From positions 1 to 64,000 of the forward strand of contig JAISQE010000067.1 of assembly GCA_031274425.1 (NCBI GenBank): 64,000 bases of DNA, read 5' to 3'. The notes below the pieces were generated by a model. The model did not search any database. It was not told the DNA's origin and saw nothing but the letters and a program-made list of their open reading frames with translations. Position numbers and translations under genes: made by a program. Positions within the stretch are counted from its first letter, which is position 1. Every line of letters begins with the position of its first letter. Shown here piece after piece: positions 9,421-43,930 of the stretch. The stretch is from Synergistaceae bacterium (GTDB lineage: Bacteria > Synergistota > Synergistia > Synergistales > Aminobacteriaceae).

Positions 9421-9467
9421 ATTGTTCTTTGCGGCACGCAGAGAACGCGAGTCTCCATAAAAAGACC

Positions 9468-9821: not shown

Positions 9822-9882
9822 TCAACTTCATCCTTTCGTTAAGAAGTGCTCGAAATTTACTCGAATAAAGAGTCTCGACGCC

Positions 9883-22296: not shown

Positions 22297-22303
22297 TCGG
22301 GTT

Positions 22304-24880
22304 TTAAAGATCCTTGACGACGATGTTGACGAGCTTGTCGGGTACGGCGATGATTTTGACGATCTCCTTAGGGATGCCCTGGGGCGCGATCTTCTCCTTG
22401 ACCTGCGCGTCGCTCATCACGATGTCCTTCAACTGCGTTTCATCGAGTCCCGCCGGCATGGAGAGTTTGACGCGCACCTTGCCGTTCACCTGCACGACGA
22501 TGGTGACGACGTCCGCGACGAGCGCGTCCTCCTCCGAAACGGGCCAGGGCGTCTTGGCGAGCAAGGTTTTGTTGCCCAACATCCGCCAGAGTTCCTCGGC
22601 GATATGCGGGCTGAAGGGAGACAGGCAGTTCAAAAGGACGTCCACCGCTTCGCGCCGCAGCTTGTATCCGACGGGCTCGGCGGGCTGAAACGCATAAAGC
22701 GCGTTCGTCAGTTCCATCAAACGGGCGATGGCGGTGTTGAACTGCTTCTCCTCGTTGATGTCGCGCGTCACGGAGAAAATCGTGTTGTGGATCTTGCGCT
22801 TGAAATCGCGCTGAACCGGGTCGGACAGGGCGGACATGGGGACGCGGGCAGGATCGGACTCGGAGTAAACGTCCCCCGAGCTAGGCTCATGGGTCAGTCC
22901 CTCCAGGTTGTCCTCCACGAAGCGCCACACCCGGTTCAGAAAACGATGCGCGCCCTCCACGCCTTGTTCCGACCAGTCCAAGTCGTTCTGGGGCGGAGAG
23001 GCGAAAAGGATGAAAAGACGCACGGTGTCGGCACCGTATTTGTCGACGATCTCCGTCGGGTCCACCACGTTGCCCAGAGACTTCGACATCTTGGCGCCCT
23101 CTTTGATGACCATTCCCTGGGTCAAAAGATTGGTGAACGGCTCGCGCACGTTGCAGGGCAAGAGGCCGGCATCCGACAGGAACATCGTGAAGAAGCGCGC
23201 GTAGATCAAGTGGAGGCAGGCGTGTTCGATTCCCCCGATGTATTGGTCGACGGGCATCCAGTAATCCGTGTCCTTCGCGTTGAACGGCGCTTTGTCGAAT
23301 CCAGGCGAGCAGTAGCGGTCGAAATACCAGGACGAGCAGAAGAACGTGTCCATAGTCTCGGCCTCCCGCCGCGCCTTTCCCCCACAGACCGGACACGCGG
23401 TTTCGAGCCACTCCGGCAGGTCCAGAAGCGGAGAACGTCCCACGTCGACGACTTGAACGTCCTCGGGCAGCAACACGGGAAGCTGGTCCTCGGGTACGGG
23501 AACCAGGCCGCACTTCGGGCAGTGCACGAAGGGAATGGGCGTTCCCCAATAACGCTGGCGCGAGATCAGCCAGTCGCGCAAACGGAAGTTCACCTCGCGC
23601 TTGCAGAGCCCTTCTTTCTCGCCCCAGTCGATCATCGCCTGTATGGCCTTTTGCGTCGGCAGTCCGTTGAATTGCGCGGAGTTGCAGCTCAGCCCGTCGT
23701 CCTCGAACGCGGCCTCCATCGTCGCGCCGTCCAGCGTTTCCCCCTCCGGCTGAATGACCGGAATGATCGGGATGCCGTACTTGCGGCAGAAGTCGAAGTC
23801 GCGCTGGTCGTGCGCCGGAACGCCCATGATCGCGCCCGTGCCGTAGTCCATGAGAATGTAATTGGCGATCCAGATGGGGACGGGCTCGCCCGTGACGGGG
23901 TGCGCGCCGGTGAAGGGCGTCTTGAGGCCCAGCTTCTCTCCCCCCGCGTCGGAGCGTTCGATGGCGCTCTGGGCCGCGCATCGGGCCACGAAATCGGACA
24001 TTTGTTTCGCCTCGGAGGAACCGCCGTCCCCCGAGCCCTTTTTTTCGGCTTTTTCGGACAATTTGTCGATCATGGCCTTGATCAGCTCGTGCTCCGGGGC
24101 CAGGGCAATGAAGGTGATGCCGTATACCGTGTCGAAGCGGGTGGTGAAGGCTTCGATCGTGTAGTCCAGTTCCTCGACTCTGAAGGAGAGCCGCGCGCCC
24201 TCCGAGCGGCCGAGCCAATTGCGCTGCATGATGCGGACGCGCTCGGGCCAACCGGTGAGCTGCGTGTCGATGTTGTCCAGAAGCTCCTGCGCGTAGTCCG
24301 TGATCTTAATGAACCACTGTTCCAGGTTTTTCTTGACGACGGGCGTCTCGCAGCGCCAGCACGCGCCATTTACGACCTGTTCGTTGGCGAGCACGGTCCC
24401 GCAGGGCTCGCACCAGTTGACGGGAGCTTGTTTGCGGTACACCAGTCCCTTTTTGTACATTTGAAGAAAAATCCACTGGTTCCAGCGATAGTAGTCCGGG
24501 TTGCAGCTCTCGACGCGCCGCCTCCAGTCGTAGCTGTAACCCATGCGCTTGAGCTGATTCGTCATGTATTCGATGTTGTTCCAGGTCCACTCGTGGGGTT
24601 TGGTCTTGTATTTGATCGCGGCGTTCTCCGCCGGCATGCCGAAGGCGTCGAAGCCCATCGGGTAGAGAACGTTGAATCCCTTCTTGCGGAGGAAACGGGC
24701 AAGCATGTCTCCCATGGAGTAATTGCGCACGTGCCCCATGTGCAGCGCGCCGCTAGGGTAGGGAAACATCTCCAGGCAATAGAACTTGGGCTTGCCCGGA
24801 TCGGTCTCCACCTCGAAACTTTTTTGATTTTCCCATATCTTTTGCCACTTTGTCTCGATTGCCTGAAAATCGTAGCCCAT
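22304..24880 (-). CDS. leuS: leucine--tRNA ligase
   Basis: 858 aa; HMGH and KMSKS class I motifs plus CP1 editing domain. Confidence 0.97.
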
Positions 24881-25131
24881 CGTACATTTCCCCCCGAAAT
24901 TTTAAGAAAAAGGCTTGAGGCCGGAATCGCTGAAAACCCCTACGAACATCGCCCGGCAATTCAATATCAGAAAGGATTATAGCGTTTAACCCTCTCCGTG
25001 GCAAAGGCGGCGGGCATACGCTCCGCGCGGCGGGGAAAGCCGCGTTCCAAACCGGTATTATTATCGGTAAAGGCTTGCGTCGCCGCCTCCGAAAGTCGAG
25101 TATAATGAAAAATTATACGCGATAAGGGGGT

Positions 25132-27907: not shown

Positions 27908-29338
27908 TCAATCCTCCTGCTTGCGTGGAGCGAACATTTGAAGAAACGTCTTATGGGTGTCGCGCGGCAAAATACGATATCCTTTTTTTTCTTTGGTGAT
28001 CCATAAAAAATAATCTTTGTAAAACGAGGTCGCCATTTCCAGAATCGATTTGCCTTTATTGTCTTTGATGGTTTCGTAAGCGTTCTTCAAGATGCGGTCC
28101 TCGTCGCTGTCCCATCGAAACGTGCCCGCTCCGTAGGCGATGGCCTTTTCGGCGGATGTGGTCGGAAAGACCGGCAGGAGGATCGTATGATCCGCCCAAT
28201 CGTACGTCCCCAACCCCTGCCCGGGAATGAAGATCACCTGCGGAACGCCGTACATGCGAATGCGAGGCACCCCGAACATGTCCATGTCCAGGTCGCTCAT
28301 TTCTTCCATTATTCGAGACGCGGTTTCGTAAAGCATGGGCTCGGAGTCATGGGGGCACAAAAGCGATTGTTCGCAACGGGCGACCTTGGCGGGGACCGCC
28401 ATGTATTCTTTTTTCTTGGTCAGCATGTTCTTGAGTTCTTTACGCATCATCTGCTGAGAAAACTGGGCGCACGCGTGGGAAATTTTTTCGGCCTTGCGCC
28501 GGATTTTATCGCTTTCCTGCCGGCAGTAGATGATTTTACGCGCCAGGATTTTCGTGGATTCGTGAAGAGCGGTGAACATCTCGAGTTCCGGTAGCCCCAG
28601 CGGCTCTTCTTCGTCCTTTTGGGCTATGGAGAGCTGGGTCTCCATCACGCGTTCCGCTTCGTTGTAGCGAAAACGGTCCTGCGACATCGCCTGTTTCAGG
28701 TCGTCTTTAGCCTCGCGATATTCTTTGGTCCGCATGGAGGCCTTTGTGGCGGAGATCAGCGTCCGGCTCATGTCGGAGACCAGGGCGTCCAAATCGGTGC
28801 CCGTCATGTTCTTGCTGCGGGAGACGATCTTCAGGATCTCAGAGTTTCGTTTTTCCTGCAAGGCGGACAATCGTTTTTCGAGTTCCTCGATTTTGTCCTC
28901 CGTCTTTTCTCCCGACGGGGAGACCGGGAGGGGATTCCTCGTGATCATGCCCCAACAGTCCGCGATGAAGTCCGAAAAAGCTCGGTAGGAAAAAACCCCA
29001 AGGGCAAACTTCGACGTCAGGGCGAGGGACGCGTCGAATTTTTTGTTGCGCGGCGTGATTTCGTCGTGCAAAAATCCGAAGTCGATAAAGAGGCGCTCTT
29101 CCTCGTCGAAGGTCAAGGCGGAGGGAAATGACTCCGTCTGCGCGTCCAAAATCGCGAACAGAAGATCCCAATATTTATCCGAGAGCTGCCCCCAGGTTTT
29201 CCTGGCTTGCGCTTTGTCCTCGCTTTTATTCGAGGAAGCGTACTGCAGATATTTATCGGCGATCTTCCCGATTTCCTCCGCCGTGTTGACGACGTCGGGC
29301 ACGTTTTTCCATCGTTTGAACTCGATTTTCGCGGCCAT
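27908..29338 (-). CDS. hypothetical cytoplasmic protein, K/E-rich with coiled-coil segment; lower GC than neighbours
   Basis: 476 aa from ATG 29338 (RBS AGGGGGA 6 nt upstream; the TTG at 29368 is less likely). No recognisable domain. Confidence 0.5.
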   Translation of the reverse strand: MAAKIEFKRWKNVPDVVNTAEEIGKIADKYLQYASSNKSEDKAQARKTWGQLSDKYWDLLFAILDAQTESFPSALTFDEEERLFIDFGFLHDEITPRNKKFDASLALTSKFALGVFSYRAFSDFIADCWGMITRNPLPVSPSGEKTEDKIEELEKRLSALQEKRNSEILKIVSRSKNMTGTDLDALVSDMSRTLISATKASMRTKEYREAKDDLKQAMSQDRFRYNEAERVMETQLSIAQKDEEEPLGLPELEMFTALHESTKILARKIIYCRQESDKIRRKAEKISHACAQFSQQMMRKELKNMLTKKKEYMAVPAKVARCEQSLLCPHDSEPMLYETASRIMEEMSDLDMDMFGVPRIRMYGVPQVIFIPGQGLGTYDWADHTILLPVFPTTSAEKAIAYGAGTFRWDSDEDRILKNAYETIKDNKGKSILEMATSFYKDYFLWITKEKKGYRILPRDTHKTFLQMFAPRKQED

Positions 29339-29654
29339 CTCGATCCCCCTGAGTGGAATATCCAACATTCAGTGCTTACGTTCCTCCGCAAACTCCGAAA
29401 CTTGTTTTAAGTATAACACTTTCGTACGTTTGACCCAAAGGAAGAGCGAGACCCCAAAACCGTAAGGGAAAATATTGAAACGGAAGTTCGCCATTTGAAT
29501 CTTCGAAAAATCACCGTCCCCCCGGTCGCGCCGGGGTTCTTTCGCCGTTTCCCCCAAAGACGCGTCGCGTGAGACGTTTTATGTTGTTTCATGCGACGTT
29601 TCACGCGGCTTTCAGAGAAAATTTTAAGAGCAAAAGGCGGGCAGGGAATATTCA

Positions 29655-29725
29655 AGCAAATACAAAAACCGCATCCGTTCAATTCCCGAGCGCTTCAGGG
29701 AAGCTCTTGGGAATTGAACGGATGC
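29655..29725 (-). terminator. rho-independent terminator, 17-bp perfect stem (GCATCCGTTCAATTCCC / GGGAATTGAACGGATGC) plus U-tract
   Basis: Perfect inverted repeat 29671-29687 / 29709-29725 with a 21-nt loop. Minus-strand transcript continues GGUUUUUGUAUUUG. Lies 20 nt past the stop of the large oxidoreductase gene. Confidence 0.8.
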
Positions 29726-29744
29726 AGTATGTTCCGCTCTGACG

Positions 29745-32700
29745 TTACAGCGCCATCTCGGCCGCGGGGATCTCCTTACCCAACTTGCGCAGGGCGGAGG
29801 CTAAAATCCAGCGCAGGCTCCGCGCGCCCTGAGGCGGCAGCGGGCCCATGCGCACTTCCAGCTTCGCGCCGCTGAACGCGCCGGTGTAGGTTCCCTCGCG
29901 TTCCGCCCAAGCCGTGATCGGCAGAAGCAGGTCGAAAGAGCCTTCGCAAACGTTGGAGGCTAACAGAACTTTCTTCGCGCTTTTCGCTTCTTTCGGCATG
30001 TCCGCGAGACCGAAATCGTCGGGCGTGCAGTCGACGAAGAGGGCCACGTTGGCGTCGCCGGTTTTTATCGCGTCGACCGCCGCCTCCGGGCTGTGGGTGA
30101 CCAGGTTCGAACCCAGAAGCCCTCCCGCGTTCGCGCCCAGGGAAGAAAGGCTCTTCAAGTTTTCGGGGAAAGCGGACAGGTCGCCCCCGAACTCCACGGC
30201 TTTGGCCAAAAGCGTCGTCTTCCGAACCAACTCGGCGACGTCCGCCTTTACCTTGCCCTTCGGCGTCTCGGACTCGAAGGACGCCAGCAGCGCGTTCACC
30301 TGGGCGGCGTCGACCCCGAAACCCTTCGCGGCCACGACGCACCTCTGGCCTTCGCGGTCGCAGGCGTCGCGAAGGGACTTGACCGCCGCGATCTCCTGAT
30401 CCGTCAAAGAAGTCCCCAAAAATATGGCGACCTTGGCGTCCGCGGATTCCGAGGGGCTCAAAATTTCCGAGAGCTTTTCGACGGCCTCGCTCCAATCGAT
30501 GGATTTTTTTTCGGTTTTTCCGGCCATCGGTTCCGCCAAACGGTTGTTCGTCACGTCCTGGAAGTGATAGCGGCCCCGCAGACAGGTCAGACCGCGATTC
30601 GGGGAATCCACCGCGTCCATGTCCGTCGTGACGCGGGCGATTCGGGTGCGTTCCGCGTCCGTGTTCACAAGCAGCTCGCAGCCCAGGGGGCAGTGCGGGC
30701 AGGTGGTCTTCGTCGTCTTCATCTTGTTTTGGTGCGGCAGCCGCTCCACCCGGCGTTCCAATAGAGCCCCCACGGGGCAAAGCTGCGAGCACAATCCGCA
30801 GAACGTGCAGTCGGAGTGTTCCATGTCCTTGTAGAACTGCGGAGACAGAATCGATTCGAATCCGCGTTGGGCGAAATCGATGGCGTGAACCCCCGCCACC
30901 TCGTCGCAGACGCGGACGCAGCGCCCGCAGAGAATGCACTTGTCCATATTGCGGACGTAATAGCGGTTCACGACCTCCCGCTTCGGAACGTGAGCGCCAG
31001 CCACCCTCTCGGGGTGGACTTCCAGGTCAATGGCGAACTCCCTCAGCCGGCACTCGTGCACGTCGGGGCAGCCGCACTCCATGCAACGGGAGGCTTCGTG
31101 AAGCGCCTGAGGCTCCGTGAAGCCGTAGTTGTATTCCACGTCGGGGGCCTTCAGGCGCACCTCCGCGGGCTCCTCTCGGGGGTGCTCGCGCGGGGTTTTC
31201 TCCACGTGGGTGAAGTCCTTCGGTCCCAAATCGGGATTGGTGACGTCGTAGACGAATTTCTTTTTCGGCGTTCCCTGTTTGAAATAATGATCCACCGACT
31301 CCGCGCACCAGTGGCCGTTGCCGATCGCCTCGATGGCGATTTTCGCGCCGGTCTGCTGGTCGCCGCAGGAAAACACACCGGGCAGCGGCGTGGCGTAGTT
31401 TTCGTCCACCTTCATGCGCCGCCCGTCGTGCAGCTCGACGGGCACGTCGGCGAAGTTCACTCCCTGCCCGATGGCGGCGATGACGTTGTCCACGTCGAGA
31501 ACGAGTTCCTCGCCCGTGGGGACGGGGCTGCGCCGGCCGGAGGCGTCGGGCTCTCCCAGCTTCATGCGCTCGCACACCAGGCGCTCGACCTTGCCGTTCC
31601 CCTCGATGGCTTTGGGGGCCGCCAGGTAGACGAACTCCACCCCTTCCTCCATGGCCTCGCGAATTTCCACGTCCTCGGCGGGCATCTCCTCGCGCGTTCG
31701 GCGATAGACGACGTAAACTTTTTCCGCGCCCAGACGGCGGGCGCTGCGGCAGGCGTCCATCGCGGTGTTGCCCCCGCCGACGACGGCCACGCGATTGCCG
31801 AGCCGGAACCCGGGCTCGGGGAGGATGGTTCCGCCGAGCCCTCCCCTCGGATTGCGGGTGTTGACCGTGTAGAGAAAGTCGATGCCCCCCACGACCCCCG
31901 GCAGGTTCTCGCCCTCTACCCGCATGGACGAGGACTTCCAGCAACCCATCGCCAGCACGACGGCGTCGTAGCGAGAACGCAAAGCCGTCAGGCTGATGTC
32001 CTTGCCCAGCGCCGCGCCGGTCTCCACCGTCACTCCATGGTCCAGGATCCACCGCGCTTCGGCGTCCACCACCGAAGGGGGCAGGCGATAGTCCGGGATT
32101 CCGTAGCGCATCATTCCGCCCAACTGCCGTTCCCGCTCGTAGATCGTGACGCCGTAGCCCATACGCCGCGCAAAGTACGCGAAGGACAGCCCCGCGGGGC
32201 CGCCTCCGACCACGGCGATCTTCTTCCCGTTTTCGATGATCTTGGGGATGTCGCCCAGTCCCCGCTCCTCGCGGCTCATCGCCCAGTCCGCCACGAATCG
32301 TTTGATCTCTCGAATCGAGACCGTTTCGTCCACTAAGTTTCTGCGGCATTTCGTTTGGCATGGAGCGGGGCAGACGCGTCCGATGCTGGCGGGCATGGTC
32401 ACATGGTCGTGGAGCTCGTCGAGGGCCTCCCGATATTTTCCCTGCGCCGTCAGGTTGACGTAGGACTGCACCTTCCCCTGAGCGGGGCAGGCCAGGTTGC
32501 AGGGGGGGCGGCAGTCTCCCACATGGTCGGAAAGCATCAGCTCCAGGGCCAGCCGGCGGGCCGCCAAGACGCGGGTCGTGTCGGTGCGGACCACCATGCC
32601 GGGCGCAATGGCGTTGGTGCAGGCCCGCATCAGGGCGCGCGCGCCCTCGATCTCCACGAGGCACACCGAGCATCCTCCGTGAACGGACAAATGGGGGTCG

Positions 32701-32828
32701 TAGCAAAGCGTCGGGATCTTGATTCCGGCTTCGCCGCACAGCTCCAGCACCTTCTGCCCCGGATAGCCGTAAACGGCCTTTCCGTCGATCGTCACTTTTA
32801 TCGTTCTGTCGATTCTATTCATCGTCAT
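29745..32828 (-). CDS. NuoG-like Fe-S subunit with inserted GltD-like FAD/NAD(P)-binding domain (Nfn-Bfu-type catalytic subunit)
   Basis: N-terminal 2Fe-2S (CYDPHLSVHGGCSVC), GltD-like domain (AVVGGGPAGL...VAVVGGGNTAMD), 2x4Fe-4S (CILCGRCVRVC, CTFCGLCSQLCP), MopB-type Fe-S (TCPHCPLGC) and a truncated molybdopterin-oxidoreductase-like C-terminus. True start ATG 32828 with GGGAGG RBS; the 1171-aa ORF N-terminus is artefact. Confidence 0.8.
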   Translation of the reverse strand: MTMNRIDRTIKVTIDGKAVYGYPGQKVLELCGEAGIKIPTLCYDPHLSVHGGCSVCLVEIEGARALMRACTNAIAPGMVVRTDTTRVLAARRLALELMLSDHVGDCRPPCNLACPAQGKVQSYVNLTAQGKYREALDELHDHVTMPASIGRVCPAPCQTKCRRNLVDETVSIREIKRFVADWAMSREERGLGDIPKIIENGKKIAVVGGGPAGLSFAYFARRMGYGVTIYERERQLGGMMRYGIPDYRLPPSVVDAEARWILDHGVTVETGAALGKDISLTALRSRYDAVVLAMGCWKSSSMRVEGENLPGVVGGIDFLYTVNTRNPRGGLGGTILPEPGFRLGNRVAVVGGGNTAMDACRSARRLGAEKVYVVYRRTREEMPAEDVEIREAMEEGVEFVYLAAPKAIEGNGKVERLVCERMKLGEPDASGRRSPVPTGEELVLDVDNVIAAIGQGVNFADVPVELHDGRRMKVDENYATPLPGVFSCGDQQTGAKIAIEAIGNGHWCAESVDHYFKQGTPKKKFVYDVTNPDLGPKDFTHVEKTPREHPREEPAEVRLKAPDVEYNYGFTEPQALHEASRCMECGCPDVHECRLREFAIDLEVHPERVAGAHVPKREVVNRYYVRNMDKCILCGRCVRVCDEVAGVHAIDFAQRGFESILSPQFYKDMEHSDCTFCGLCSQLCPVGALLERRVERLPHQNKMKTTKTTCPHCPLGCELLVNTDAERTRIARVTTDMDAVDSPNRGLTCLRGRYHFQDVTNNRLAEPMAGKTEKKSIDWSEAVEKLSEILSPSESADAKVAIFLGTSLTDQEIAAVKSLRDACDREGQRCVVAAKGFGVDAAQVNALLASFESETPKGKVKADVAELVRKTTLLAKAVEFGGDLSAFPENLKSLSSLGANAGGLLGSNLVTHSPEAAVDAIKTGDANVALFVDCTPDDFGLADMPKEAKSAKKVLLASNVCEGSFDLLLPITAWAEREGTYTGAFSGAKLEVRMGPLPPQGARSLRWILASALRKLGKEIPAAEMAL

Positions 32829-32836
32829 GTCCTCCC

Positions 32837-34726
32837 CTAGTCCACCGAAATACACGAAACCGGGCAGTTTTTCTTGCAGAGGCCGCAGCGGACGCAGACG
32901 TCGTCGTCGATACGGTGCGGCGTTTTCACGGTTCCCGTGATCGCGCTCACCGGGCAGGCCTTCGTGCAGCGCGTGCACCCGATGCAGCGCGACGCGTCGA
33001 TGGAGTAATGGATCAGCGGCGCGCATACCTTTGCCGGGCATTTTTTGTCGACGATATGAGCGATATACTCGTCCCGGAAGTATTTGAGCGTCGTCTGCAC
33101 GGGGTTCGGCGCGGTTTGCCCCAATCCGCAGAGGGAGCCGTCCTTGATTTGTCCGGCGAGGCTCGACAGTTTGTCGATGTCTTCGAGCACGCCCTCGCCT
33201 CTCGTGATCTTCTCCAGAATTTCGAGCATCCGTTTGGTGCCGATGCGGCAGAACGGGCATTTTCCGCAGGATTCCTTCTGCACGAAGGCCAGGAAGAAGC
33301 GCGCCACATCCACGACGCAGGTGTCCTCGTCCATGACGACCATGCCCCCCGACCCCATGATGGCGCCCGTGGCGTTGATGGACTCGTAGTCCACCGGCGT
33401 GTCCAGAAGATGTTCGGGCACGCAGCCCCCCGACGGGCCTCCAAGCTGCACCGCCTTGAACTTGCGGTCGTTTTCGATGCCCCCCGCGATGTCGTAGATG
33501 ACCTCGCGCAGGGGCATTCCCATCGGCACCTCGGCCAAGCCGCCTTTTTTGATTTTTCCGGCCAAGGCGAAGACCTTCGTTCCCTTACTGCGGCCGTGTC
33601 CGTACTGGTTGAACGCGCTCGCCCCGTGCAGCAGAATCCAGGGCACGTTGGCGTAGGTCTCCACGTTATTGATGTTCGTGGGTTTTTTCCATACCCCGCT
33701 GTTGGCGGGGAAAGGGGGGCGCGGACGCGGCATCCCGCGTTGCCCCTCGATCGAGGCGATCAGCGCCGTTTCCTCGCCGCAGACGAACGCGCCGGCGCCT
33801 TCTTTGACGTAGACGTCGAAGTCGAAATCCGGGTCGCCCAGGATGCTTTTTCCCAAAAACCCTCGTTCCCGCGCTTGGTCCAGAGCGATGTTGACGTGCT
33901 GGATCGCCATGGGGTACTCCGCGCGGCAATAAATCACCCCGTGGGAGGCCCCGACGGAGTAAGCGCCGATGGCCATTCCCTCGATGACGCTGTGGGGGTC
34001 GCTCTCCAGGACGGAGCGGTCCATGAACGCGCCGGGGTCGCCCTCGTCCGCGTTGCAAACCATGTATTTATCGACGCCGTTCGGGTTCGAGGCGTTGGAT
34101 TGACCGGCCTTGGCGTCGCGGGCGAAACGCCACTTCATCCCCGTGGGGAAACCCGCTCCTCCTCTGCCGCGAAGCCCGCTGTCCAGAACCTCTTTGATGG
34201 CGTCGTCGCGAGTCATCTCCTTGACCGCTCTGGAGAGCCCTCTATATCCGTCGCGGGCGATATATTCGTCGATGTTTTTGGGGTCGATGAGTCCGCTGTT
34301 GCGCAGAACGATGCGCACTTGTTTGTCCGCGCGCGGGTTCTCGCTGCCTTTTTCGGTCTCGTTTTCGGCCCCGCCGCCTGGCGAAGCCTCCGATCCCGTC
34401 AGGATCAAGTGTTCTTTCACAATGCTGTTTTTATTCACGTGTTCGTCGACGACGCGGCGCAGGACTTCCACGTCCACTTTGCCGTAGGTGTAGCTTTTTC
34501 CATCCCGTATCACGCTCACCAGAGGCTCCATGTAGCAGTAGCCGATACAGCCCACCTTTTTGATCTCCACGTCCTCGCGGCCGGCCAGGAGCTTTTCCAA
34601 CTCCTCGGCGACAGGAAGCCCGCCCGAGGCGACTCCGCAGCTTGCCAGCCCAATCGTTACCGTCGTCTTGTTCAATGCGACACCCCCGTTTGTTTCAACT
34701 CGTGTATTTGCAAACTCCGCGGACAA
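32837..34726 (-). CDS. NuoF-like NADH-binding flavoprotein subunit (HydB/HndC-like) with extra N-terminal 2Fe-2S and C-terminal 2x[4Fe-4S] domains
   Basis: 629 aa: FMN/NADH-binding core (GGAGFPTGMKW), SLBB, 4Fe-4S, plus ferredoxin motifs CIGCTRCTKACP / CVRCGLCKKNCP. Confidence 0.9.
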   Translation of the reverse strand: MSAEFANTRVETNGGVALNKTTVTIGLASCGVASGGLPVAEELEKLLAGREDVEIKKVGCIGYCYMEPLVSVIRDGKSYTYGKVDVEVLRRVVDEHVNKNSIVKEHLILTGSEASPGGGAENETEKGSENPRADKQVRIVLRNSGLIDPKNIDEYIARDGYRGLSRAVKEMTRDDAIKEVLDSGLRGRGGAGFPTGMKWRFARDAKAGQSNASNPNGVDKYMVCNADEGDPGAFMDRSVLESDPHSVIEGMAIGAYSVGASHGVIYCRAEYPMAIQHVNIALDQARERGFLGKSILGDPDFDFDVYVKEGAGAFVCGEETALIASIEGQRGMPRPRPPFPANSGVWKKPTNINNVETYANVPWILLHGASAFNQYGHGRSKGTKVFALAGKIKKGGLAEVPMGMPLREVIYDIAGGIENDRKFKAVQLGGPSGGCVPEHLLDTPVDYESINATGAIMGSGGMVVMDEDTCVVDVARFFLAFVQKESCGKCPFCRIGTKRMLEILEKITRGEGVLEDIDKLSSLAGQIKDGSLCGLGQTAPNPVQTTLKYFRDEYIAHIVDKKCPAKVCAPLIHYSIDASRCIGCTRCTKACPVSAITGTVKTPHRIDDDVCVRCGLCKKNCPVSCISVD

Positions 34727-34739
34727 TGCGGCCGCCTGG

Positions 34740-35228
34740 CTACCTCTTGCGCAGCTCTTCCAACACCCCTACCGCCTTTTCGGGCGTCAGGCGGCCATGG
34801 ACTTCGGTCCCCACCAGCATCACCGGAGCTAGACTGCAACAGCCCAGGCACGCCACGTATTGCAGGGTGAACATCAAGTCCTCCGTCGTTTCCCCGTCTT
34901 TTATCCCCAAGGATCTTTCGATTTGCTCCGCAACGCGCCCGGAGCCCTGAACATGGCAGGCTGTTCCCCGGCACAGGCGAATGACGTGCTTTCCCTGCGG
35001 CCGAAAACGGAACATCGCGTAGAACGTCGCGACTCCGAAAAGCTCCGCCGCCGGAATCGCAAGCTGCGAACTGACGTAGTTCACGGCCTCCTCGGCTACG
35101 TAACCCACCTCCCTTTGTACGTCCGCCAACAGCGGAATGGCGACCCCCTCTTTACCGCGATACTTTTCGACGATCGGAGCAAGTCGAGCCTCCAGGTCCG
35201 GAATGGCTCCTGCAACAGCCGTGGTCAT
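34740..35228 (-). CDS. NuoE-like thioredoxin-fold 2Fe-2S subunit
   Basis: 162 aa; CRGTACHVQG...CLGCCSLAPV cysteine pattern of NuoE/HndA. Confidence 0.9.
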   Translation of the reverse strand: MTTAVAGAIPDLEARLAPIVEKYRGKEGVAIPLLADVQREVGYVAEEAVNYVSSQLAIPAAELFGVATFYAMFRFRPQGKHVIRLCRGTACHVQGSGRVAEQIERSLGIKDGETTEDLMFTLQYVACLGCCSLAPVMLVGTEVHGRLTPEKAVGVLEELRKR

Positions 35229-35315
35229 TAAACATCAGCCCCTCTATTGTGATATCATTTGCGATGACGGAGAACATTGCTTTAGTGTATCCTCAGGAAG
35301 TCATGAACGCAAGGC

Positions 35316-35336
35316 GACTTTCCGGGTGACTTTCCG
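35316..35336. promoter_or_regulatory. tandem direct repeat GACTTTCCG-GGT-GACTTTCCG in the divergent nuoE-like / V4R intergenic region
   Basis: Two exact 9-mers with a 12-bp period, seen directly in the sequence. Confidence 0.35.
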
Positions 35337-35415
35337 AGCGATCGAGGGTCCGCCGGCGAAAGCGCGAACTTGAAAATGAGATTCTCGAAAAAATCTTGAA
35401 GGAGGTTGTAACGAA

Positions 35416-35949
35416 GTGGAAAATGTATTTTCTGAGGGCATGGGACACAGTTCGTTTTCTTGGGAGAACCTTGGGGACATCAAAGAGGGCCGGGGAGATC
35501 TGGGCGAGGATATGCCGGTGTTGGTGTATCGTCTCATGCAGTACACGATGCTGGACGAGCTGAGCAAGGCTTACGGACCGGAGGTGGCCAACGACCACTT
35601 CCGCAACGCCGGGTTTTTGGCGGGTACCGAGTTTGCCAAAAACGTGTTGGATCTGACGCTGGATTTCAACGCCTTCGTCGCCAATCTGCAAAAAACTTTG
35701 CAAGAACTTAAAGTCGGTATTTTGCGCATGGAGGCCTTCGACGCCGGCACCGGAAATATCGTGTTGACCGTGGGGCAGGACCTGGACTGCAGCGGTCTCC
35801 CGGTGACCAATGAAACCGTCTGCAATTACGACGAGGGGTTCATCGCCGGGATTCTGGAGGCGTACACCGGTAAAAAGTACAACGTGCGCGAGGTCGACTG
35901 CTGGGCGAATGGAGACCGAGTCTGCAGATTCCAAGGCGCTGTTCTGTAG
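35416..35949 (+). CDS. V4R (4-vinyl reductase) domain protein
   Basis: 177 aa; V4R signature near the C-terminus (ETVCNYDEGFIAGILEAYTGKKY) with conserved Cys pair. GTG start with AAGGAGG RBS. Confidence 0.7.
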   Translation: MENVFSEGMGHSSFSWENLGDIKEGRGDLGEDMPVLVYRLMQYTMLDELSKAYGPEVANDHFRNAGFLAGTEFAKNVLDLTLDFNAFVANLQKTLQELKVGILRMEAFDAGTGNIVLTVGQDLDCSGLPVTNETVCNYDEGFIAGILEAYTGKKYNVREVDCWANGDRVCRFQGAVL

Positions 35950-35987: not shown

Positions 35988-38501
35988 TTGGCGGAGGATC
36001 GCCTCCAGGTTCTCGACGAGCACCTGTTCAAATACCTGCGTGATGTGATGTATGCCCCCTCCAAAGCGAAGTTGGATCTGAGCCTGATTCCAGACGAGCT
36101 GCAGCGGTTTGGCAAAGGGTTGCTGTTTTTTTGCGAGTGTGCGATGGAGACCGCTTCGGTGGCAAAAGCGATGTCGAAGGGGGCTTTGAGCGGCTCCTTC
36201 CCCTCGCGGCAGAACGAGATGGCGTCCCCGCTGAAATCGTTGCACGCTTCTCTGAGTCATTTGACCTGGCAGACGCAACAGGTTGCCCAAGGCGACTACA
36301 GTCAGCGCGTGAATTTTATGGGAGATTTTGCCGACGCTTTCAATACCATGGTCCAACAGCTGGACGAGCGCTGGAAATCCCTGGAGGACCTCTATCATCG
36401 GAACAGCGCGTATATCCGACTCATCCATAAGGTCGGGGGAAATTTGCTGTCTATCGGCGGTTCCGGATACGCCGACGCCGTGGTCAACTCCTTGAAAGAT
36501 CTGTGCGAGACCTTCGATTGCGCGGGTTTGTCGCTGTGGCAGGCGGACAACGAAGGAAAACGCTTCAAGCGCCTGTTCCACTGGCCGACGGACGACGGCG
36601 GTTTTTCGTTCATGATAAAAAAAGACTGGCCGACGGATTGGTTGGAAAAACTGTTCGCCGGAGAATCGATTTCCCTCGTTGGGGGGGTGTCCTGGGAGGG
36701 GCTTTTTCCTCAGGACGTCCATGCGTTTACGGCAATCCCGCTCGTGATCAAGGGCAGTTTCTGGGGGTTTATGGCCATGCCGAGCCGCCAAGAAAGGTCC
36801 TACTCCCAAGAGGAGATGTCGGTCATGACGGCCATCGGAATTTTGGTCGTTTCCGCCATTCTCGAAAAAGAGATGACCGACTCCCTGATCGCCGTCAAGG
36901 ACGCCGCGCTGAAGGCGACGCGCGTAAAAAGCGAGTTTTTGTCTCGAATGAGCCATGAGATGCGCACGCCGATGAACGCCATCATCGGCATGGCCAGTAT
37001 CGCCGAGGGAACGGACGACAAGGAGAAACTGCGTTTCTGCCTTTCCACCATCGGAACGTCGGCGAACCATCTGTTGAATTTGATCAACGACGTGCTCGAC
37101 ATGTCCAAGATCGAGGCCGGAAAACTCGAACTCGACGCCAGCCCTTTCGACATCGAAAAAATGCTGATGAAGGTCTGCAACATTCTCGAGGAAAAGGTGG
37201 ACCAGAAAAACCAGGACCTGCGCGTCGTGATAGAAAAAGGAACGGCTCTGCGCTACGTCGGAGACGAAATGCGCCTCTCGCAGGTGGTGACCAATCTCTT
37301 CGGCAACGCGGTGAAATTCACGCCGGAAAAAGGAAAGATCCTGTTGACCGTCAAGGAGGTGGAACGCCGAGGGGATCGCAGCCGGCTCCGATTTTCCGTT
37401 TCCGACACCGGAATCGGAATGACCCGGGAACAAACGGAACGGCTTTTCGGCGCTTTTCAACAGGCCGACGCCAGCATCGCCAAGCGTTATGGCGGGACGG
37501 GGCTCGGGCTCGCCATTTCGCAGAAGATCGTCGAACAAATGGACGGACGGATAGAGGTCGCGTCAGAGCCCGGTAAGGGAACCACGTTTGTCTTCGAGGT
37601 GGAGATCGAACGCGACCCCCGTCAGGAGAGCGACGCGGTTTTCGGCGGGCCGCCGGGGATTCGGGTGCTGATCGTAGACGCGGACCCCGATTCGTCGGAG
37701 CAGTTCAAGGCCGTTACCGACCGATTCGGCATTGCCTCGGACGTCGTCGCGACCTCCTCGGAGGCGATGCCGCTTCTGGACGCCGCGGTCCAAAACGGAA
37801 GCCCCTACGACGCGATTTTTCTGGATCAGGACCTGCCGGACGAGGACGTGCTCGAAGCCGTCGGCTCGCTCTCCTCCGGGATAGACAAAAATACCGTGGT
37901 CATCGTGACGTCCTTTCTAAAATGGAATAAAATCGAACAGGAGGCAAACCGGCTCGGGGTTCATCGATTTTTGACAAAACCTTTGTTTCCCTCCTCCCTG
38001 CGGGACGTGATCGAAGAACTGATCGAAAGCGGCAAAAGCGGCCCGAAAAGCGAGGCGGGCGAGGACGCCCCGGAGGGTTCCGAGGATCAGGCGATTGAAA
38101 ATCAGGCGATCGATCTTTCCGGAAAACGAATTCTCTTGACCGACGACGTGGAGATCAATCGCCTGATCGTCAGAGAGCTGTTGGAGGACACGAACGTCAG
38201 TATCGACGAGGCGGAAAACGGCGAAAAGGCCTTGTTCCTATTCGAACAATCGGCGGAGAATTACTACGACATGGTGTTCATGGATATTCAGATGCCCGGG
38301 ATCGACGGTTATGAAACGGCTCGACGCATTCGGGCATTGACGCGTTCGGACGCCAAAAGCGTGCTTATCATAGCATTGACGGCGAACGCCTACAAAGAAG
38401 ACGCCGAAAAAGCGCTGGAAGCGGGGATGGATGGGCACCTTGCGAAGCCAATCGATATCGACGAAGTACGGAATTTTCTCGCGGAACGATTGAAAAAGTG
38501 A
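35988..38501 (+). CDS. soluble hybrid sensor histidine kinase (HAMP-like, GAF, HisKA, HATPase_c, two receiver domains)
   Basis: H-box [14 protein letters not shown]; N/G boxes; two C-terminal REC domains (second has [10 protein letters not shown]...[13 protein letters not shown]). No TM segments. Confidence 0.9.
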
Positions 38502-39982: not shown

Positions 39983-40357
39983 GTGTTGAGGGTGATCGTC
40001 GGAGGACAGATGGAGAAACAACGCATTGCCGACTTGGTGAAAAAACTGGGGGGCGAGGGCGTCAGCGTTCAGGTCAAAAGCGATATCGAGGCGGCGATGC
40101 TGATAAAACGGGGCGAAGCCGACTACTACCTTGGATGTTGCGCCACGGGAGGCGGAGGATCCCTCGCGGGGGCGATCGCGATTTTGGGTTACGGCCGGTG
40201 CGTTTCCGTTTCCATGCCGGGCATCGCGCCGGAAAAGAACAAAGTCGAGCAGGCCGTGAACGAGGGAAAGCAGGCGTTCGGGTTTACCGACAATCACGTG
40301 GACGCGGCTGTCGGCATGATCATGGAGGCTATTTCAAACAGGCAATCCGCGCAATGA
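39983..40357 (+). CDS. DUF2620 protein (YhfU-like)
   Basis: 124 aa; YYLGCCATGGGGSLAGAIAILG motif as in E. coli YhfU. Confidence 0.7.
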   Translation: MLRVIVGGQMEKQRIADLVKKLGGEGVSVQVKSDIEAAMLIKRGEADYYLGCCATGGGGSLAGAIAILGYGRCVSVSMPGIAPEKNKVEQAVNEGKQAFGFTDNHVDAAVGMIMEAISNRQSAQ

Positions 40358-41484
40358 ACCGGGTCGACACGATAGAGACCCATCCCCTCGAAAGCCTGAG
40401 CGTAGCGGAGGCGAAGGCCATGCAGTTTCGGCTGGTAGACGCGGCGGCGCGGCGGCTGAGCGGAACGGAGGCGCTTTCGACCGGCGATCTGGGGGTTGCC
40501 GCGCGCCACGGTCGCCCCGAAACGACGGAGAAGATTGAGGGCGTTGTCGCGGATTTTTTCGGAGCGGAGGCCGCCGCGCTGGTGCGCGGAGCGGGCAGCG
40601 GCGCCGTTCGCTTTGCCGTGTGGGCCGTGGCGCGGGCGGGCGACGGCGTGTTGACCCACGACGCCCCCATTTACGACACCACAAAACTTTTGTTCGATTC
40701 CATGGGCTTGAAGGTGGGTTCTTGCGATTTCAACTCCTTGGAAAAGACGGCGGAAACCCTTCGGAATGGGAATTTCGCTTTGGCTTTGGCGCAGCACGCC
40801 CGCCAAAAGATAGAAGACCGATACGCTCTGGCCGACGTGATTTCCGTTTTAAAACGGAACGCGCCTGAAATGCCCGTCGTGACGGACGACAACTACGCGG
40901 CGTTGAAGGTCCCTCGCATCGGCATCGAACTGGGCGCGGACCTGTCGACCTTTTCGGCTTTCAAGCTCCTGGGGCCCGAGGGGGTGGGGTGCGTCGCCGG
41001 CAGAGCGGATCTGGTGGAACGCATCCATAAAATGAACTACTCGGGAGGCGGCCAGGTGCAGGGGCATGAGGCCATGGAGGTTCTGCGAGGGATGATTTGC
41101 GCGCCTGTGCTTCTGGCGCTGCAGGCCGAGGTGGTGGAGGAACTCCACGCCCGGTTGAACGCCGCGGAGATCCAGGGCGTCAAACGCGCTTTTATCGCCA
41201 ATGCCCAATCCAAAGTATTGCTCGTCGAACTGGAGCGCCCGTTTGCCCGCAAGGTTTTGGAGCGGGCGGAGCCTCTGGGGGCCGCGCCCTGGCCCGTGGG
41301 GGCGGAGTCGAAATATGAGTTTGCCCCGATGTTTTACCGAGTGTCGGGAACCTTTCTCGCGTCGAACCCCTGGCTGGCGGAGCGCATGATTCGCATCAAT
41401 CCGATGAGGGCGGGGGCCGATACGGTCCTCGGAATATTGGAAAGAGCGATAGCGGCCGCCTCGCCCGGCCGGGGATTTGCATAG
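40354..41484 (+). CDS. YhfS-like PLP-dependent enzyme
   Basis: Starts MNRVDTIETHPLESL with ATGA overlap to the DUF2620 stop; about 376 aa, size and order match E. coli yhfS. Confidence 0.6.
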   Translation: MNRVDTIETHPLESLSVAEAKAMQFRLVDAAARRLSGTEALSTGDLGVAARHGRPETTEKIEGVVADFFGAEAAALVRGAGSGAVRFAVWAVARAGDGVLTHDAPIYDTTKLLFDSMGLKVGSCDFNSLEKTAETLRNGNFALALAQHARQKIEDRYALADVISVLKRNAPEMPVVTDDNYAALKVPRIGIELGADLSTFSAFKLLGPEGVGCVAGRADLVERIHKMNYSGGGQVQGHEAMEVLRGMICAPVLLALQAEVVEELHARLNAAEIQGVKRAFIANAQSKVLLVELERPFARKVLERAEPLGAAPWPVGAESKYEFAPMFYRVSGTFLASNPWLAERMIRINPMRAGADTVLGILERAIAAASPGRGFA

Positions 41485-41495
41485 GGGGATTCTGT

Positions 41496-42653
41496 GTGTT
41501 TTTAGGAAAAGTGAGAGCGCGTAATCCCAAACTTTTGGACAAGGCGTTGGAACTCCACGCGTCAGGGCAAATTCGCCCCGATACCTGGGTTATCGATTTG
41601 GATTCGCTGTTGAGCAACGCTTCTTCGATCCTGAATGAAGCGAGAAAATACGGCGTCGAGCTTTACTATATGACGAAGCAATTCGGCAGAAATCCCCTCA
41701 TCGCGCGGAAATTGCAGGATCTGGGCTACGCGGGAGCCGTTGCGGTCGACCACAAAGAGGCGTCCGTTCTGCTAAAAAATGGGCTGCGCTTGGGGCACGT
41801 GGGGCATCTCGCGCAAATTCCGGCCGCCGACGTCCCGAAAATCGTGGCGGCGCGTCCTGAAATCGTCACCGTTTACTCTTACGAGAAGGCCGAGCACCTG
41901 TCCGCGGAGACGTTGAAAGCGGGACGGGTTCAACCCATCATGCTCCGAATGTGGGATGAAAAAAACCCCGTGTTCTTGGGGCAGGAGGCGGGCTACAGCC
42001 TCACCCAGCTGCAGGCGTTGCTCTGGAGGCTCGACGCGTTGAAGGGAGTCCGCGTCGCCGGCGTCACGGCTTTCCCTTGCTTTGTTTTCGACCCGGACGT
42101 GGGGGACATCGTCCCCACGAAAAACGCGGAGCTGCTGGGCCGCGCCAAAGAATGGCTGAAACGGAATTGGGCGGACTCCTCCTCTTTGCAGATCAACATG
42201 CCTTCCGCGACCTGCCTGAGGACGTTGCCGCTCATCGCCGAGAGAGGAGGAACCCATGCCGAGCCGGGACATGGGTTGACGGGCACGACGCCGCTGCACG
42301 CGGCGACGGACCAGCCGGAGGTTCCCGCCATGGTGTACGTCACGGAGGTGTCGCACCATTGGAAGAGGTCCTCCATGGTGTACGGCGGGGGCTTTTACCG
42401 GCGGGGACACCTGCGTAACGCCTTCGTGGCGGGGAAAGCGACGATGGTCTATCCCTTGGATCCTTTGACGATCGATTATCATTTCGAGATCGATGGACAA
42501 TTTCCCGTGGGAACGCCGGTGTTGATGGCTTTTAGAGCGCAGGCTTTCGTAACCCGCAGCGATATTGCCGTGGTACGGGGAATCCACGCGAAAAAAGGCA
42601 AAAGCAAGCTCTTGGGCATTTTCGATCCGCTGGGGGGGAAAATCGCATCGTGA
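41496..42653 (+). CDS. YhfX-like putative amino-acid racemase (alanine racemase N-domain fold)
   Basis: 385 aa; MFLGKVRARNPKLLDKALELHASG... similar to YhfX. Confidence 0.6.
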   Translation: MFLGKVRARNPKLLDKALELHASGQIRPDTWVIDLDSLLSNASSILNEARKYGVELYYMTKQFGRNPLIARKLQDLGYAGAVAVDHKEASVLLKNGLRLGHVGHLAQIPAADVPKIVAARPEIVTVYSYEKAEHLSAETLKAGRVQPIMLRMWDEKNPVFLGQEAGYSLTQLQALLWRLDALKGVRVAGVTAFPCFVFDPDVGDIVPTKNAELLGRAKEWLKRNWADSSSLQINMPSATCLRTLPLIAERGGTHAEPGHGLTGTTPLHAATDQPEVPAMVYVTEVSHHWKRSSMVYGGGFYRRGHLRNAFVAGKATMVYPLDPLTIDYHFEIDGQFPVGTPVLMAFRAQAFVTRSDIAVVRGIHAKKGKSKLLGIFDPLGGKIAS

Positions 42654-43930
42654 AAAGATTTGTCGTCGTCGTTCTCGACGGATTGGGGATCGGGGCTATG
42701 GAGGACGTGCCCGCCGTGCGCCCCGAGGACATGGGAGCCTGCACTCTGGGCTCGATTCTGGAGTCCCGCCCCGATCTGCGCCTGCCGAACCTGGAGCGCC
42801 TGGGTCTCATGAACGCGCTGGGAAGGGAAAGCGCCCGTATGCGCTTTTCCGCGTCCGGGATCTGGGGGAGGGGATCTTTGATGCACTGGGGCGCGGACAC
42901 CTTCTGGGGACACCAGGAGATCCTGGGGACCCTGCCCAAACGCCCCCGGTGCGAGCCGTTCTCGACCGTGGCGGAGAAGATCGAAAGCCTGTTGCTGGGG
43001 AAGGGCTATAAGGTCCGCCGCGTGGGATTGGGCGGGCTCCGTCCCCCTGGGGTTGAGGTTGGAGTTGGAGTTGAGGTTGAACCTTTACAAAATCTTTATC
43101 TGCTGCAGGTGGAGGACGCCGTGACCTTGGGCGACAACCTGGAGGCCGATCCTGGACAAAACTACAACGTAACGGCGGTTTTGGACAGAATTTCTTTCGA
43201 CGAAGCGCTTCGAATCGGGCGCTACGTGCGGGAAAGCGTGGAGGTCTCCCGCGTGATCTGTTTCGGGAACCCGTCCGTGAACATGGATTGCCTTTTGAGC
43301 GCCATGGAAGTGAGAGACGCGCGGTATATGGGGGTCAGCTCCGCGCGAAGCGGGGTATACGGCGAAGGATATCGGTGCATCCACATGGGCTACGGCGTGG
43401 ACTCCGCTCTTCAGATCCCGGCGTTGCTGGCGGAGCGCGGCGTCCCCGTCCTTTTGTTCGGCAAGGTCGCGGATATCGTGGAAAATCCGCGGGGGGAGTC
43501 CGTCTCCTGGGTCGACACGGAAGAGGTCCTCTCCATGACGATGGGCGCGCTGACGGCGCTGGAGAGGGGATTTGTCTGCACCAACGTTCAGGAGACGGAC
43601 CTGGCCGGGCACATGCAGAGCGCCGAGCGGTACGCGGAGGCTCTGGAAAAAGCGGACCCTTGGATCGGGCGCTTGATGGAGCGCTTGCGCGACGACGACG
43701 TTTTGTTGGTGATGGCGGACCACGGCAACGACCCCAACATAGGGCATACCCACCATACCCGGGAAAAAGTTCCGATTTTGGTTTACTCCCCCCGCGTTGC
43801 GCGGCCGGACGGTCTTGAACTGGGCGAACGCGACACGCTTTCCGACGTGGGGGCCACCGTGGCCGCCTACTTCGGCGCTCGCGCGCCGGAGAACCCCCAC
43901 GCGAAACCGATAAAAGAGCTGCTCATATAG
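42650..43930 (+). CDS. YhfW-like phosphopentomutase-family metalloenzyme
   Basis: MKRFVVVVLDGLGIGAMEDVP..., alkaline-phosphatase-superfamily mutase motifs; 4-nt overlap with the previous gene. Confidence 0.65.
   Translation: MKRFVVVVLDGLGIGAMEDVPAVRPEDMGACTLGSILESRPDLRLPNLERLGLMNALGRESARMRFSASGIWGRGSLMHWGADTFWGHQEILGTLPKRPRCEPFSTVAEKIESLLLGKGYKVRRVGLGGLRPPGVEVGVGVEVEPLQNLYLLQVEDAVTLGDNLEADPGQNYNVTAVLDRISFDEALRIGRYVRESVEVSRVICFGNPSVNMDCLLSAMEVRDARYMGVSSARSGVYGEGYRCIHMGYGVDSALQIPALLAERGVPVLLFGKVADIVENPRGESVSWVDTEEVLSMTMGALTALERGFVCTNVQETDLAGHMQSAERYAEALEKADPWIGRLMERLRDDDVLLVMADHGNDPNIGHTHHTREKVPILVYSPRVARPDGLELGERDTLSDVGATVAAYFGARAPENPHAKPIKELLI

Follow-up and report, generated by a model that had tools for sequence, protein, structure and literature searches.

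Which enzyme is encoded by three co-oriented genes whose large product appears in public records (P0001, P0121 and relatives) as 'FAD-dependent oxidoreductase' (NCBI; FAD, flavin adenine dinucleotide), as 'formate dehydrogenase major subunit' (JGI) and as 'glutamate synthase'? The genes in question, nfnC, nfnB and nfnA, are the open reading frames (ORFs) found on the minus strand between positions 29745 and 35228 of contig JAISQE010000067.1 (assembly GCA_031274425.1), in a stretch of 64,000 nucleotides, hereafter the window, and together they make up a single operon of three cistrons, nfnCBA (stnABC), in an uncultured member of the Synergistaceae. The public names are misleading, and none of them conveys the NfnA/StnC identity of the large subunit. 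With a probability of about 0.88, sequence and structure comparisons point to a flavin-based electron-bifurcating transhydrogenase of the Bfu family, that is, an NADH-dependent reduced-ferredoxin:NADP+ oxidoreductase linking the pools of ferredoxin and of the reduced nicotinamide adenine dinucleotides NADH and NADPH. An earlier sequence-only reading of the locus had proposed the same family, which it held to be little characterised. This last statement has to be corrected, as the Nfn-type Bfu enzymes were defined in 2020-2022, their occurrence in Synergistetes was explicitly noted in 2022 (PMC9304861), and three of them, StnABC of Sporomusa ovata, NfnABC of Caldicellulosiruptor saccharolyticus and NfnABC of Thermococcus sibiricus, have been purified, assayed and solved by cryo-electron microscopy as bifurcating transhydrogenases, with biochemistry and mutagenesis accompanying the three structures (PMC10482914, PMC11829005, PMC12018979).

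The gene structure, the domain order, the conservation of cofactor ligands, the fold and the conservation of the operon are established directly by the present analysis. In the large subunit NfnA, whose residues are numbered from the ATG at 32828 (1027-aa numbering), Pfam places an NfnL/GltD-like module for FAD and NADPH (Fer4_20 and Pyr_redox_2, residues 106-504) between the Fer2_4 head and the Fer4_Nqo3 domain. This agrees with the earlier proposal of a GltD-like FAD/NAD(P) domain with two Rossmann motifs, inserted between a 2Fe-2S head and the Fe-S and MopB-type domains. Specifically, GGGPAG is found at residues 208-213, GGGNTAMD at 351-358 and YRR at 375-377, and the stretches GGGPAG, GGGNTAMD and YRRTREEMPA are identical or nearly identical to those of three NADPH-using enzymes (PDB chains 9bov_A, 8oh5_C and 9n5u_A), the FAD and NADPH motifs aligning exactly. 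Ligands for the predicted Fe-S clusters are present in full. Cluster A1, a [2Fe-2S] site, has C42/C53/C56/C70, while six [4Fe-4S] clusters have 24 further ligands, namely H102, K176 and 22 cysteines (C106/C110/C114, C153/C157/C161, C582/585/587/593, C631/634/637/641, C674/677/680/684 and C710/713/717/749). All 28 of them, K176 included, are invariant in 101 homologues together with R248, and the ligand sets are conserved with respect to the C. saccharolyticus and S. ovata enzymes. Full sets are likewise found along the electron wire A7-A6-A3-A2-A1. In particular, the A7 residues C114, C153, C157 and K176 align with C108, C147, C151 and K170 of C. saccharolyticus, and ligation of this cluster by a lysine is specific to the family (PMC10482914, PMC11829005). 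R248, in the motif GIPDYRLP, aligns with R239 of S. ovata and R234 of T. sibiricus, an arginine near FAD; in S. ovata, mutagenesis has demonstrated that K170 and R239 are needed for activity (PMC10482914).

Database and fold comparisons lead to the same family. The PDB chains closest to NfnA are C. saccharolyticus NfnA (9bov_A, E 1e-206), S. ovata StnC (8oh5_C, E 7e-192) and T. sibiricus NfnA (9n5u_A, E 1.5e-157); NfnL, GltD and DPD rank far lower (NfnL E 7e-86) and cover only residues ~105-518, and subunits of formate dehydrogenases, NuoG and hydrogenases match the Fe-S domains only. An AlphaFold2 model built from the 101 homologues (predicted local distance difference test score, pLDDT, 86.3; predicted template modelling score 0.80) matches 9bov_A, 8oh5_C and 9n5u_A/9n5v_A over its full length, with TMq values of 0.69-0.79, while its match to NfnL, GltD and DPD is confined to the inserted module (NfnL TMt 0.80). 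The Nfn-type identity first read from the letters is therefore that of the closest chains and of the full-length fold match alike, the complexes 9bov, 8oh5 and 9n5u. In the NADPH domain, before the GGGNTA motif, the model contains a disordered 13-aa insertion (pLDDT <50), RGGLGGTILPEPG, at residues 326-338 (window ~31815-31853, minus strand), which is shared only with the homologue P0006.

It may be asked whether the large subunit is instead what the public names say, the catalytic part of an NAD(P)-linked formate dehydrogenase or of another molybdopterin enzyme, or a fusion of the glutamate synthase small subunit. The names themselves, the Molybdop_Fe4S4 domain and a weak match to the Molybdopterin family PF00384 would favour the former, and the best NCBIfam match, PRK12814 ('putative NADPH-dependent glutamate synthase small subunit'), would favour the latter. 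With 570 bits the PRK12814 match misses its cutoff of 916 by a wide margin, no NCBIfam equivalog score comes near its own cutoff, and there is no gltB partner. As for a molybdopterin enzyme, domains I-IV of MopB need 600 residues or more, whereas 268 residues follow the Molybdop_Fe4S4 domain (which ends at 759), with a partial, sub-threshold PF00384 match only (E 0.0037) and no Pfam match to PF01568 (Molydop_binding) in this C-terminal remnant. When NfnA is aligned with P0106, a relative of 1367 aa with full-length MopB, the Cys-His active-site segment (…HCARLCHTPT…) and a block of ~90 residues fall in gaps. The alpha subunits of formate dehydrogenases in the PDB match only residues ~612-820, falling short of a full MopB catalytic subunit, there is no full-length alignment to FdhA or NuoG with an intact site for the molybdenum-bis(pyranopterin guanine dinucleotide) cofactor, and the solved homologues show no pterin density. 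Neither is an H-cluster domain present in NfnA, given that NCBIfam and PDB hydrogenase matches cover only residues 10-115 and 582-704 and no hydrogenase large-domain match was obtained. A large subunit with a vestigial MopB C-terminus, and with no H-cluster or full molybdopterin domain, is what the sequence-only reading had described, and a formate dehydrogenase or a glutamate synthase fusion is extremely improbable.

The two smaller subunits bring the core in which bifurcation would take place. NfnC, correctly anticipated as the NuoE-like [2Fe-2S] subunit, matches 2Fe-2S_thioredx in Pfam (E 9e-51), has a thioredoxin-like C-terminal domain and retains the four C1 ligands Cys86, 91, 127 and 131, which align with C74/C79/C115/C119 of T. 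sibiricus. NfnB (residues in the 612-aa numbering) consists of an N-terminal extension of ~110 aa, Complex1_51K (1e-45), NADH_4Fe-4S (2e-33) and a C-terminal Fer4 dicluster (Fer4_21). The loops GLRGRGGAGFP and TGAIMGSGG, which belong to the site for flavin mononucleotide (FMN) and NAD(H), are identical across NfnB, 9bov_B, 8oh5_B and 9n5u_B. The ligands of the [4Fe-4S] cluster B1 are C470/C473/C476/C516; the predicted zinc site B2 has C453/H540/C546/C551, aligned with C437/H524/C529/C534 of T. sibiricus; and the domain of two [4Fe-4S] clusters, B3 and B4, at which ferredoxin would dock, has one CxxCxxCxxxCP motif at residues 564-575 and another at 594-605. The FMN/NADH core and the C-terminal 2x[4Fe-4S] domain that had been read from the letters are thus found again in Pfam. 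The additional N-terminal 2Fe-2S cluster is not, as a thioredoxin-like domain at the N-terminus carries the B5 site C13/C43/C47/E50, a 3Cys+Glu pattern as in the C. saccharolyticus, T. sibiricus and S. ovata enzymes. Since identical ligands bind zinc in two of the three solved homologues, those of C. saccharolyticus and T. sibiricus (PMC11829005, PMC12018979), the site is probably a structural zinc site rather than a 2Fe-2S cluster.

Two features of NfnB vary among relatives. A B subunit adjoining a 63%-identical NfnA in a more distant relative, an uncultured Synergistales (L007, ~7884-9975; split into two tblastn segments), has a four-Cys N-terminal site (CxxxxC…CxxxC) and not 3Cys+Glu, which suggests that the metal content of B5 varies within the phylum. 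Moreover, a 10-aa insertion near the FMN domain, GQSNASNPNG (residues ~190-199), occurs in most close relatives and is found neither in L005 and L007 nor in any solved structure, and a Gly/Glu-rich linker of NfnB is lineage-specific and longer than that of C. saccharolyticus.

This core also bears on the possibility that the complex is an NADPH-linked oxidoreductase that does not bifurcate, working as NADPH:NAD+ or NADPH:ferredoxin oxidoreductase or as an NADPH-dependent sulfur/polysulfide reductase, the activity first ascribed to the homologous Nso complex of Thermococcus litoralis. StnABC does have NADPH:NAD+ and reduced-ferredoxin:NADP+ side activities, NsoC, whose C-terminal domain is likewise partial, ranks among the proteins most similar to StnC (PMC10482914), and the shortened MopB remnant of NfnA resembles the archaeal short forms. 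Against this, nothing that marks a bifurcating BfuBC core is missing: NfnB has the B2 histidine, the ferredoxin domain with B3/B4 and the domain of B5, and NfnC has the C1 ligands. Non-bifurcating NuoF/NuoE homologues have no B2-B5 sites, and the B2 histidine in particular is reported from nearly every bifurcating BfuB and from none of the homologues that do not bifurcate (Schut et al., PMC9304861). In addition, the NfnABC of T. sibiricus, which is closely related to Nso, bifurcates tightly, and the operon comprises three genes followed by a terminator, with no fourth, Nso-type subunit. A non-bifurcating enzyme is accordingly improbable.

Even with a bifurcating core, the locus might supply only the part that handles NADH and ferredoxin in a larger Bfu complex of the hydrogenase, WOR or Fdh type, with its catalytic subunits encoded elsewhere in the genome. 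Acetomicrobium mobile, also of the Synergistota, has Bfu-type NiFe-hydrogenase and WOR complexes, and the best PDB match of NfnC is A. mobile HydC (7t2r_C, 3e-53), ahead of C. saccharolyticus NfnC (9bov_C, 3e-43) and T. sibiricus NfnC (9n5u_C, 1e-42). NfnB, on the other hand, scores higher with the Nfn-type B subunits of 8oh5, 9n5u and 9bov (770-801 bits, E 1e-230 to 7e-240) than with the HydB of the A. mobile NiFe-hydrogenase (733 bits), its best match being S. ovata StnB (8oh5_B, 62% identity, E 7e-240). Furthermore, NfnA has a third-substrate site of its own (FAD/NADPH), the three-gene unit is conserved, and no hydrogenase, catalytic formate dehydrogenase or other partner genes lie within the 64 kb. 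Such a larger complex is therefore very improbable, and a self-contained Nfn-type transhydrogenase is the reading that we retain.

For this transhydrogenase, the cofactor occupancy, the substrates, the bifurcation and the physiological direction would be those of its solved homologues (PMC11829005, PMC12018979, PMC10482914). By homology to these three enzymes, NADP(H) would exchange a hydride with the non-bifurcating FAD in the GltD/NfnL-like module of NfnA, from which single electrons would run through A7 (3Cys+Lys), A6, A3, A2 and A1 to B1 of NfnB. The flavobicluster B1-FMN-C1, shared by NfnB and NfnC, would be the site of bifurcation or confurcation, with NAD(H) stacking on FMN, and the mobile C-terminal domain of NfnC would gate the delivery of low-potential electrons to ferredoxin by way of B3/B4. 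Clusters A4 and A5 would form a dead-end branch within the inactive Fdh-like remnant. The reaction is reversible, and its physiological direction is likely to be confurcation (NADH + reduced ferredoxin + 2 NADP+ -> 2 NADPH) for biosynthesis. The genes of the window near the operon serve housekeeping and amino-acid transport, and neither a hydrogenase nor Rnf is encoded in the 64-kb window; a role in making NADPH is likely because the neighbouring genes point to an amino-acid-fermenting Synergistaceae bacterium.

Several observations weigh against the transhydrogenase reading. NfnA is only moderately similar to the large subunits that have been characterised (47% identity with C. saccharolyticus NfnA over residues 8-825), and its last ~200 residues barely align with them. 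The NAD+-dependent reduction of ferredoxin by NADPH, and its reverse, have been demonstrated for the S. ovata, C. saccharolyticus and T. sibiricus enzymes only, so that for this protein and its Synergistota orthologues the activity would be one assigned by homology; specificity for NADPH over NADH, in turn, would follow from motif conservation only. Position 120 of NfnA is a valine, invariant in the 101 Synergistota-type homologues, where S. ovata has Cys114, whose mutation halves activity. The active T. sibiricus enzyme likewise has valine at this position. V120 was considered as a missing cluster ligand and rejected, because S. ovata Cys114 is not among the four A7 ligands and both the active T. 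sibiricus enzyme and the 101 homologues have valine. Finally, S. ovata without the FdhF-like domain did not yield an active complex that could be purified (PMC10482914), and for this reason the shortened remnant found here could in principle alter assembly.

This MopB-like tail, which includes A4 and A5, has no catalytic role and is a remnant that is structural rather than decaying: its pLDDT is ~85-95 at residues 860-1020, and P970, W974, E976 and G979 are nearly invariant in the 101 homologues. It is also what makes NfnA short (1025 aa, against 1172-1178 aa in the bacterial solved homologues, with clusters A4 and A5 retained). Large subunits of the same Synergistaceae clade, for which the isolate names of the metagenome-assembled genomes, and these names only, suggest an origin in gut metagenomes, measure 958-1034 aa and have no PF00384 match, whereas other homologues from Synergistota and from Bipolaricaulota measure 1075-1127 aa, and greater lengths are reached by P0101 and P0102 (~1243 aa) and by P0106 and P0108 (1367 aa). 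All four of these longer relatives carry the NfnL-like FAD/NADPH insertion; in P0106 and P0108 it is combined with a complete MopB (PF00384 and PF01568), and P0106 has a Cys-His active-site-like motif as well. These relatives may represent formate dehydrogenases of the Bfu type that are linked to NADP, and plausible forerunners from which the Nfn tail decayed, and the lengths 1367, 1243, ~1100 and ~1000 aa form a graded series that illustrates domain decay.

In the bacterial enzymes the contacts of the D2 tetramer of heterotrimers lie in the Fdh-like domain (PMC10482914), which is reduced in NfnA. Because much of this tetramerising domain is lost, the complex could be a single heterotrimer, like the archaeal enzyme. 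The wider proposal, that in a Synergistaceae clade of termite-gut type a naturally minimised NfnA of 958-1034 aa with A4/A5 kept works as a single heterotrimer and that a neighbouring pair of genes, for a V4R-domain protein and a hybrid kinase, is a dedicated nfn regulator, is tentative and rather unlikely. If true, the minimised NfnA would reveal what the structure cannot spare of the 'vestigial' domain. The short protein could also serve structural studies as a convenient minimal construct of bacterial origin.

Turning to the operon itself (Table 1), the sequence-only reading had the genes overlapping or abutting tightly. They abut, with gaps of 64 nt between nfnC and nfnB and of 8-14 nt between nfnB and nfnA, and do not overlap. 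The ribosome-binding site which had been noticed between nfnB and nfnA is indeed there and reads GGGGAGG. It precedes both candidate starts of nfnA, the ATG at 32828 (1027 aa, the JGI model) and that at 32822, two codons further on (1025 aa, the NCBI model MDR1978185.1), the latter being the better spaced from it. A mechanically called nfnA ORF of 1171 aa, with its start at 33260, was rejected on inspection of ribosome-binding sites, as it overlaps nfnB. For nfnB, a start at 34726 was discarded in favour of the TTG at 34675 after comparison of ribosome-binding sites and relatives; the choice rests on six related loci that keep the context GGGGGTG-N6-TTG/GTG-AAC-AAG at this point and have in-frame stops further upstream. 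The ATG of nfnC is preceded by the Shine-Dalgarno sequence AGAGGGG. Beginning 17 nt past the nfnA stop codon, an intrinsic terminator is formed by a stem of ~25 bp followed by the U-run UUUUUGUAUUU, with a folding energy of -52.7 kcal/mol (z = -8.2 relative to 200 shuffled sequences). With this terminator 3' of nfnA, the three genes are therefore a closed operon, and the order nfnC-nfnB-nfnA is kept in eight related Synergistales genomes. An Rfam search of the region 27-37 kb gave a single match, a chance one to the miRNA precursor mir-8515 (E 0.028) on the terminator hairpin, and a sigma-70 scan of the minus strand upstream of nfnC gave no convincing promoter match.

Table 1. Coordinates of the nfnCBA operon, its flanking features and the domains of NfnA (nucleotide positions refer to the window)
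Feature	Position	Strand	Description
nfnC (= stnA, bfuC)	34740..35228	-	NuoE-like, 162 aa
nfnB (= stnB, bfuB)	32837..34675	-	NuoF-like, 612 aa
nfnA (= stnC, bfuA)	29745..32828 (or 32822)	-	large subunit, 1027 aa (or 1025 aa)
nfnB stop codon and GGGGAGG ribosome-binding site of nfnA	32829..32845	-	sequence read (…GTGGACTAGGGGAGGACATGACGATG…)
intrinsic terminator of the operon	29657..29728	-	RNA fold
divergent intergenic (promoter) region, nfnC / V4R-domain gene	35229..35415	.	
V4R-domain protein	35416-35949	+	PF02830, E 2e-15; divergent from nfnC
GAF/HisKA/HATPase/receiver hybrid histidine kinase/response regulator	35988-38501	+	divergent from nfnC
NfnA Fer2_4, A1 [2Fe-2S] head	residues 8-84		Pfam
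NfnA His/Cys ligands and Fer4_20 (106-186), clusters A6/A7	residues 102-186		Pfam
NfnA FAD and NADPH Rossmann domains	residues 203-518		Pyr_redox_2 at 203-504, E 2e-32
NfnA 4-Cys site	residues 582-593		
NfnA 2x[4Fe-4S], Fer4_Nqo3	residues 627-689		Pfam
NfnA Molybdop_Fe4S4	residues 703-759		Pfam
NfnA reduced MopB remnant	residues 760-1027		

On the divergent upstream side, the genes for the V4R-domain protein and the hybrid kinase are followed by pgi. Four related loci (L001, L002, L003 and L008) keep the kinase gene next to nfnCBA, three of them (L001, L002 and L008) keep the V4R gene there too, and the two products may be a regulator of the nfn operon. No conserved genes were found downstream of nfnA among the relatives. 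Two minus-strand ORFs, at 35293-35934 and 29407-29682, were rejected for their low-complexity translations, which match no family; the former is the antisense of the plus-strand V4R-domain gene. Past the terminator, an ORF of 486 aa (27908-29368, minus strand) has no significant family, with DUF4315 at 4e-5 remaining below the cutoff, and is not kept beside nfn in relatives. Further away, a plus-strand ORF of 901 aa (22277-24982) has no Pfam match at E <= 1, and positions 40135-43930 of the same strand encode a YhfS-like pyridoxal-phosphate enzyme, a YhfX-like protein with the alanine-racemase fold and a phosphopentomutase-like member of the metalloenzyme superfamily, then a TetR regulator, a cluster that resembles the yhfS-yhfX region of Escherichia coli.

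The main consequence of these results is a correction of annotation: NfnA and about 100 close homologues receive a putative NfnABC/StnABC role in linking the NADH, NADPH and ferredoxin pools, which is relevant to metabolic models of uncultured amino-acid-fermenting Synergistaceae, organisms of gut and digester. Since mechanism, structure and phylum-level distribution, Synergistetes included, are already published, the locus opens no new question. It differs from the solved enzymes only in lineage-specific traits, namely the shortened Fdh-like remnant, which may affect oligomerisation, and a few loop insertions.

Among the known systems, C. saccharolyticus NfnABC (9BOV/9BP5, PMC11829005) is likewise made of three subunits, in each of which the domains follow one another as they do here. 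Its NfnA shares the full A1-A7 set, with A4/A5 as a dead-end branch and A7 ligated by 3Cys+Lys, and has no pterin, while its NfnB shares B5 as 3Cys+Glu and B2 as 3Cys+His. The C. saccharolyticus enzyme is a tetramer of trimers. As for differences, the NfnA described here is ~150 residues shorter, all of them in the Fdh-like tail, has Val120 in place of Cys114 and bears the 13-aa insertion, and NfnB has the 10-aa loop insertion and the longer Gly/Glu-rich linker. StnABC of S. ovata (8OH5/8OH9, PMC10482914), in which naming is reversed (StnA being NfnC, and StnC being NfnA), has the same cofactor ligands, its K170 and R239 corresponding to K176 and R248. In its StnC, of 1172 aa, an inactive FdhF-like domain of full size is responsible for tetramerisation; the NfnA described here lacks a large part of this domain. 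T. sibiricus NfnABC (9N5U/9N5V, PMC12018979, PMC9304861) is similar in that its NfnA is short (955-963 aa), its Fdh-like tail being reduced as well, and in the valine at the Cys114 position and the C-terminal motif LP..WAE.EGT.T. This archaeal enzyme is an active bifurcating single heterotrimer and is less identical to the present NfnA (E 1.5e-157); its NfnA is without the cysteines that ligate A4 and the second ferredoxin cluster, all of which are kept here (CxxCxxCxxxC twice).

More distant systems share single modules. The two-subunit NfnSL/NfnAB enzymes (NfnI; 5JCA, 4YLF) and GltD are homologous to residues ~105-518 of NfnA, with two [4Fe-4S] clusters and the FAD/NADPH Rossmann domains. 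In NfnSL, however, bifurcation takes place at FAD, NfnL is a stand-alone subunit whose special cluster is Glu-ligated, and NfnS is its partner; the present locus has no NfnS-like gene and does not have the two-subunit make-up, as the module is internal to a NuoG-like subunit, is Lys-ligated and would be only an electron entry/exit point. The [FeFe]-hydrogenase HydABC and the NiFe-HydABCSL of A. mobile, finally, have a homologous BfuB/BfuC core and homologous NuoG-like N-terminal Fe-S domains of BfuA. Unlike these hydrogenases, the complex described here has neither an H-cluster domain nor NiFe subunits, and its third substrate site would be that of FAD/NADP(H).

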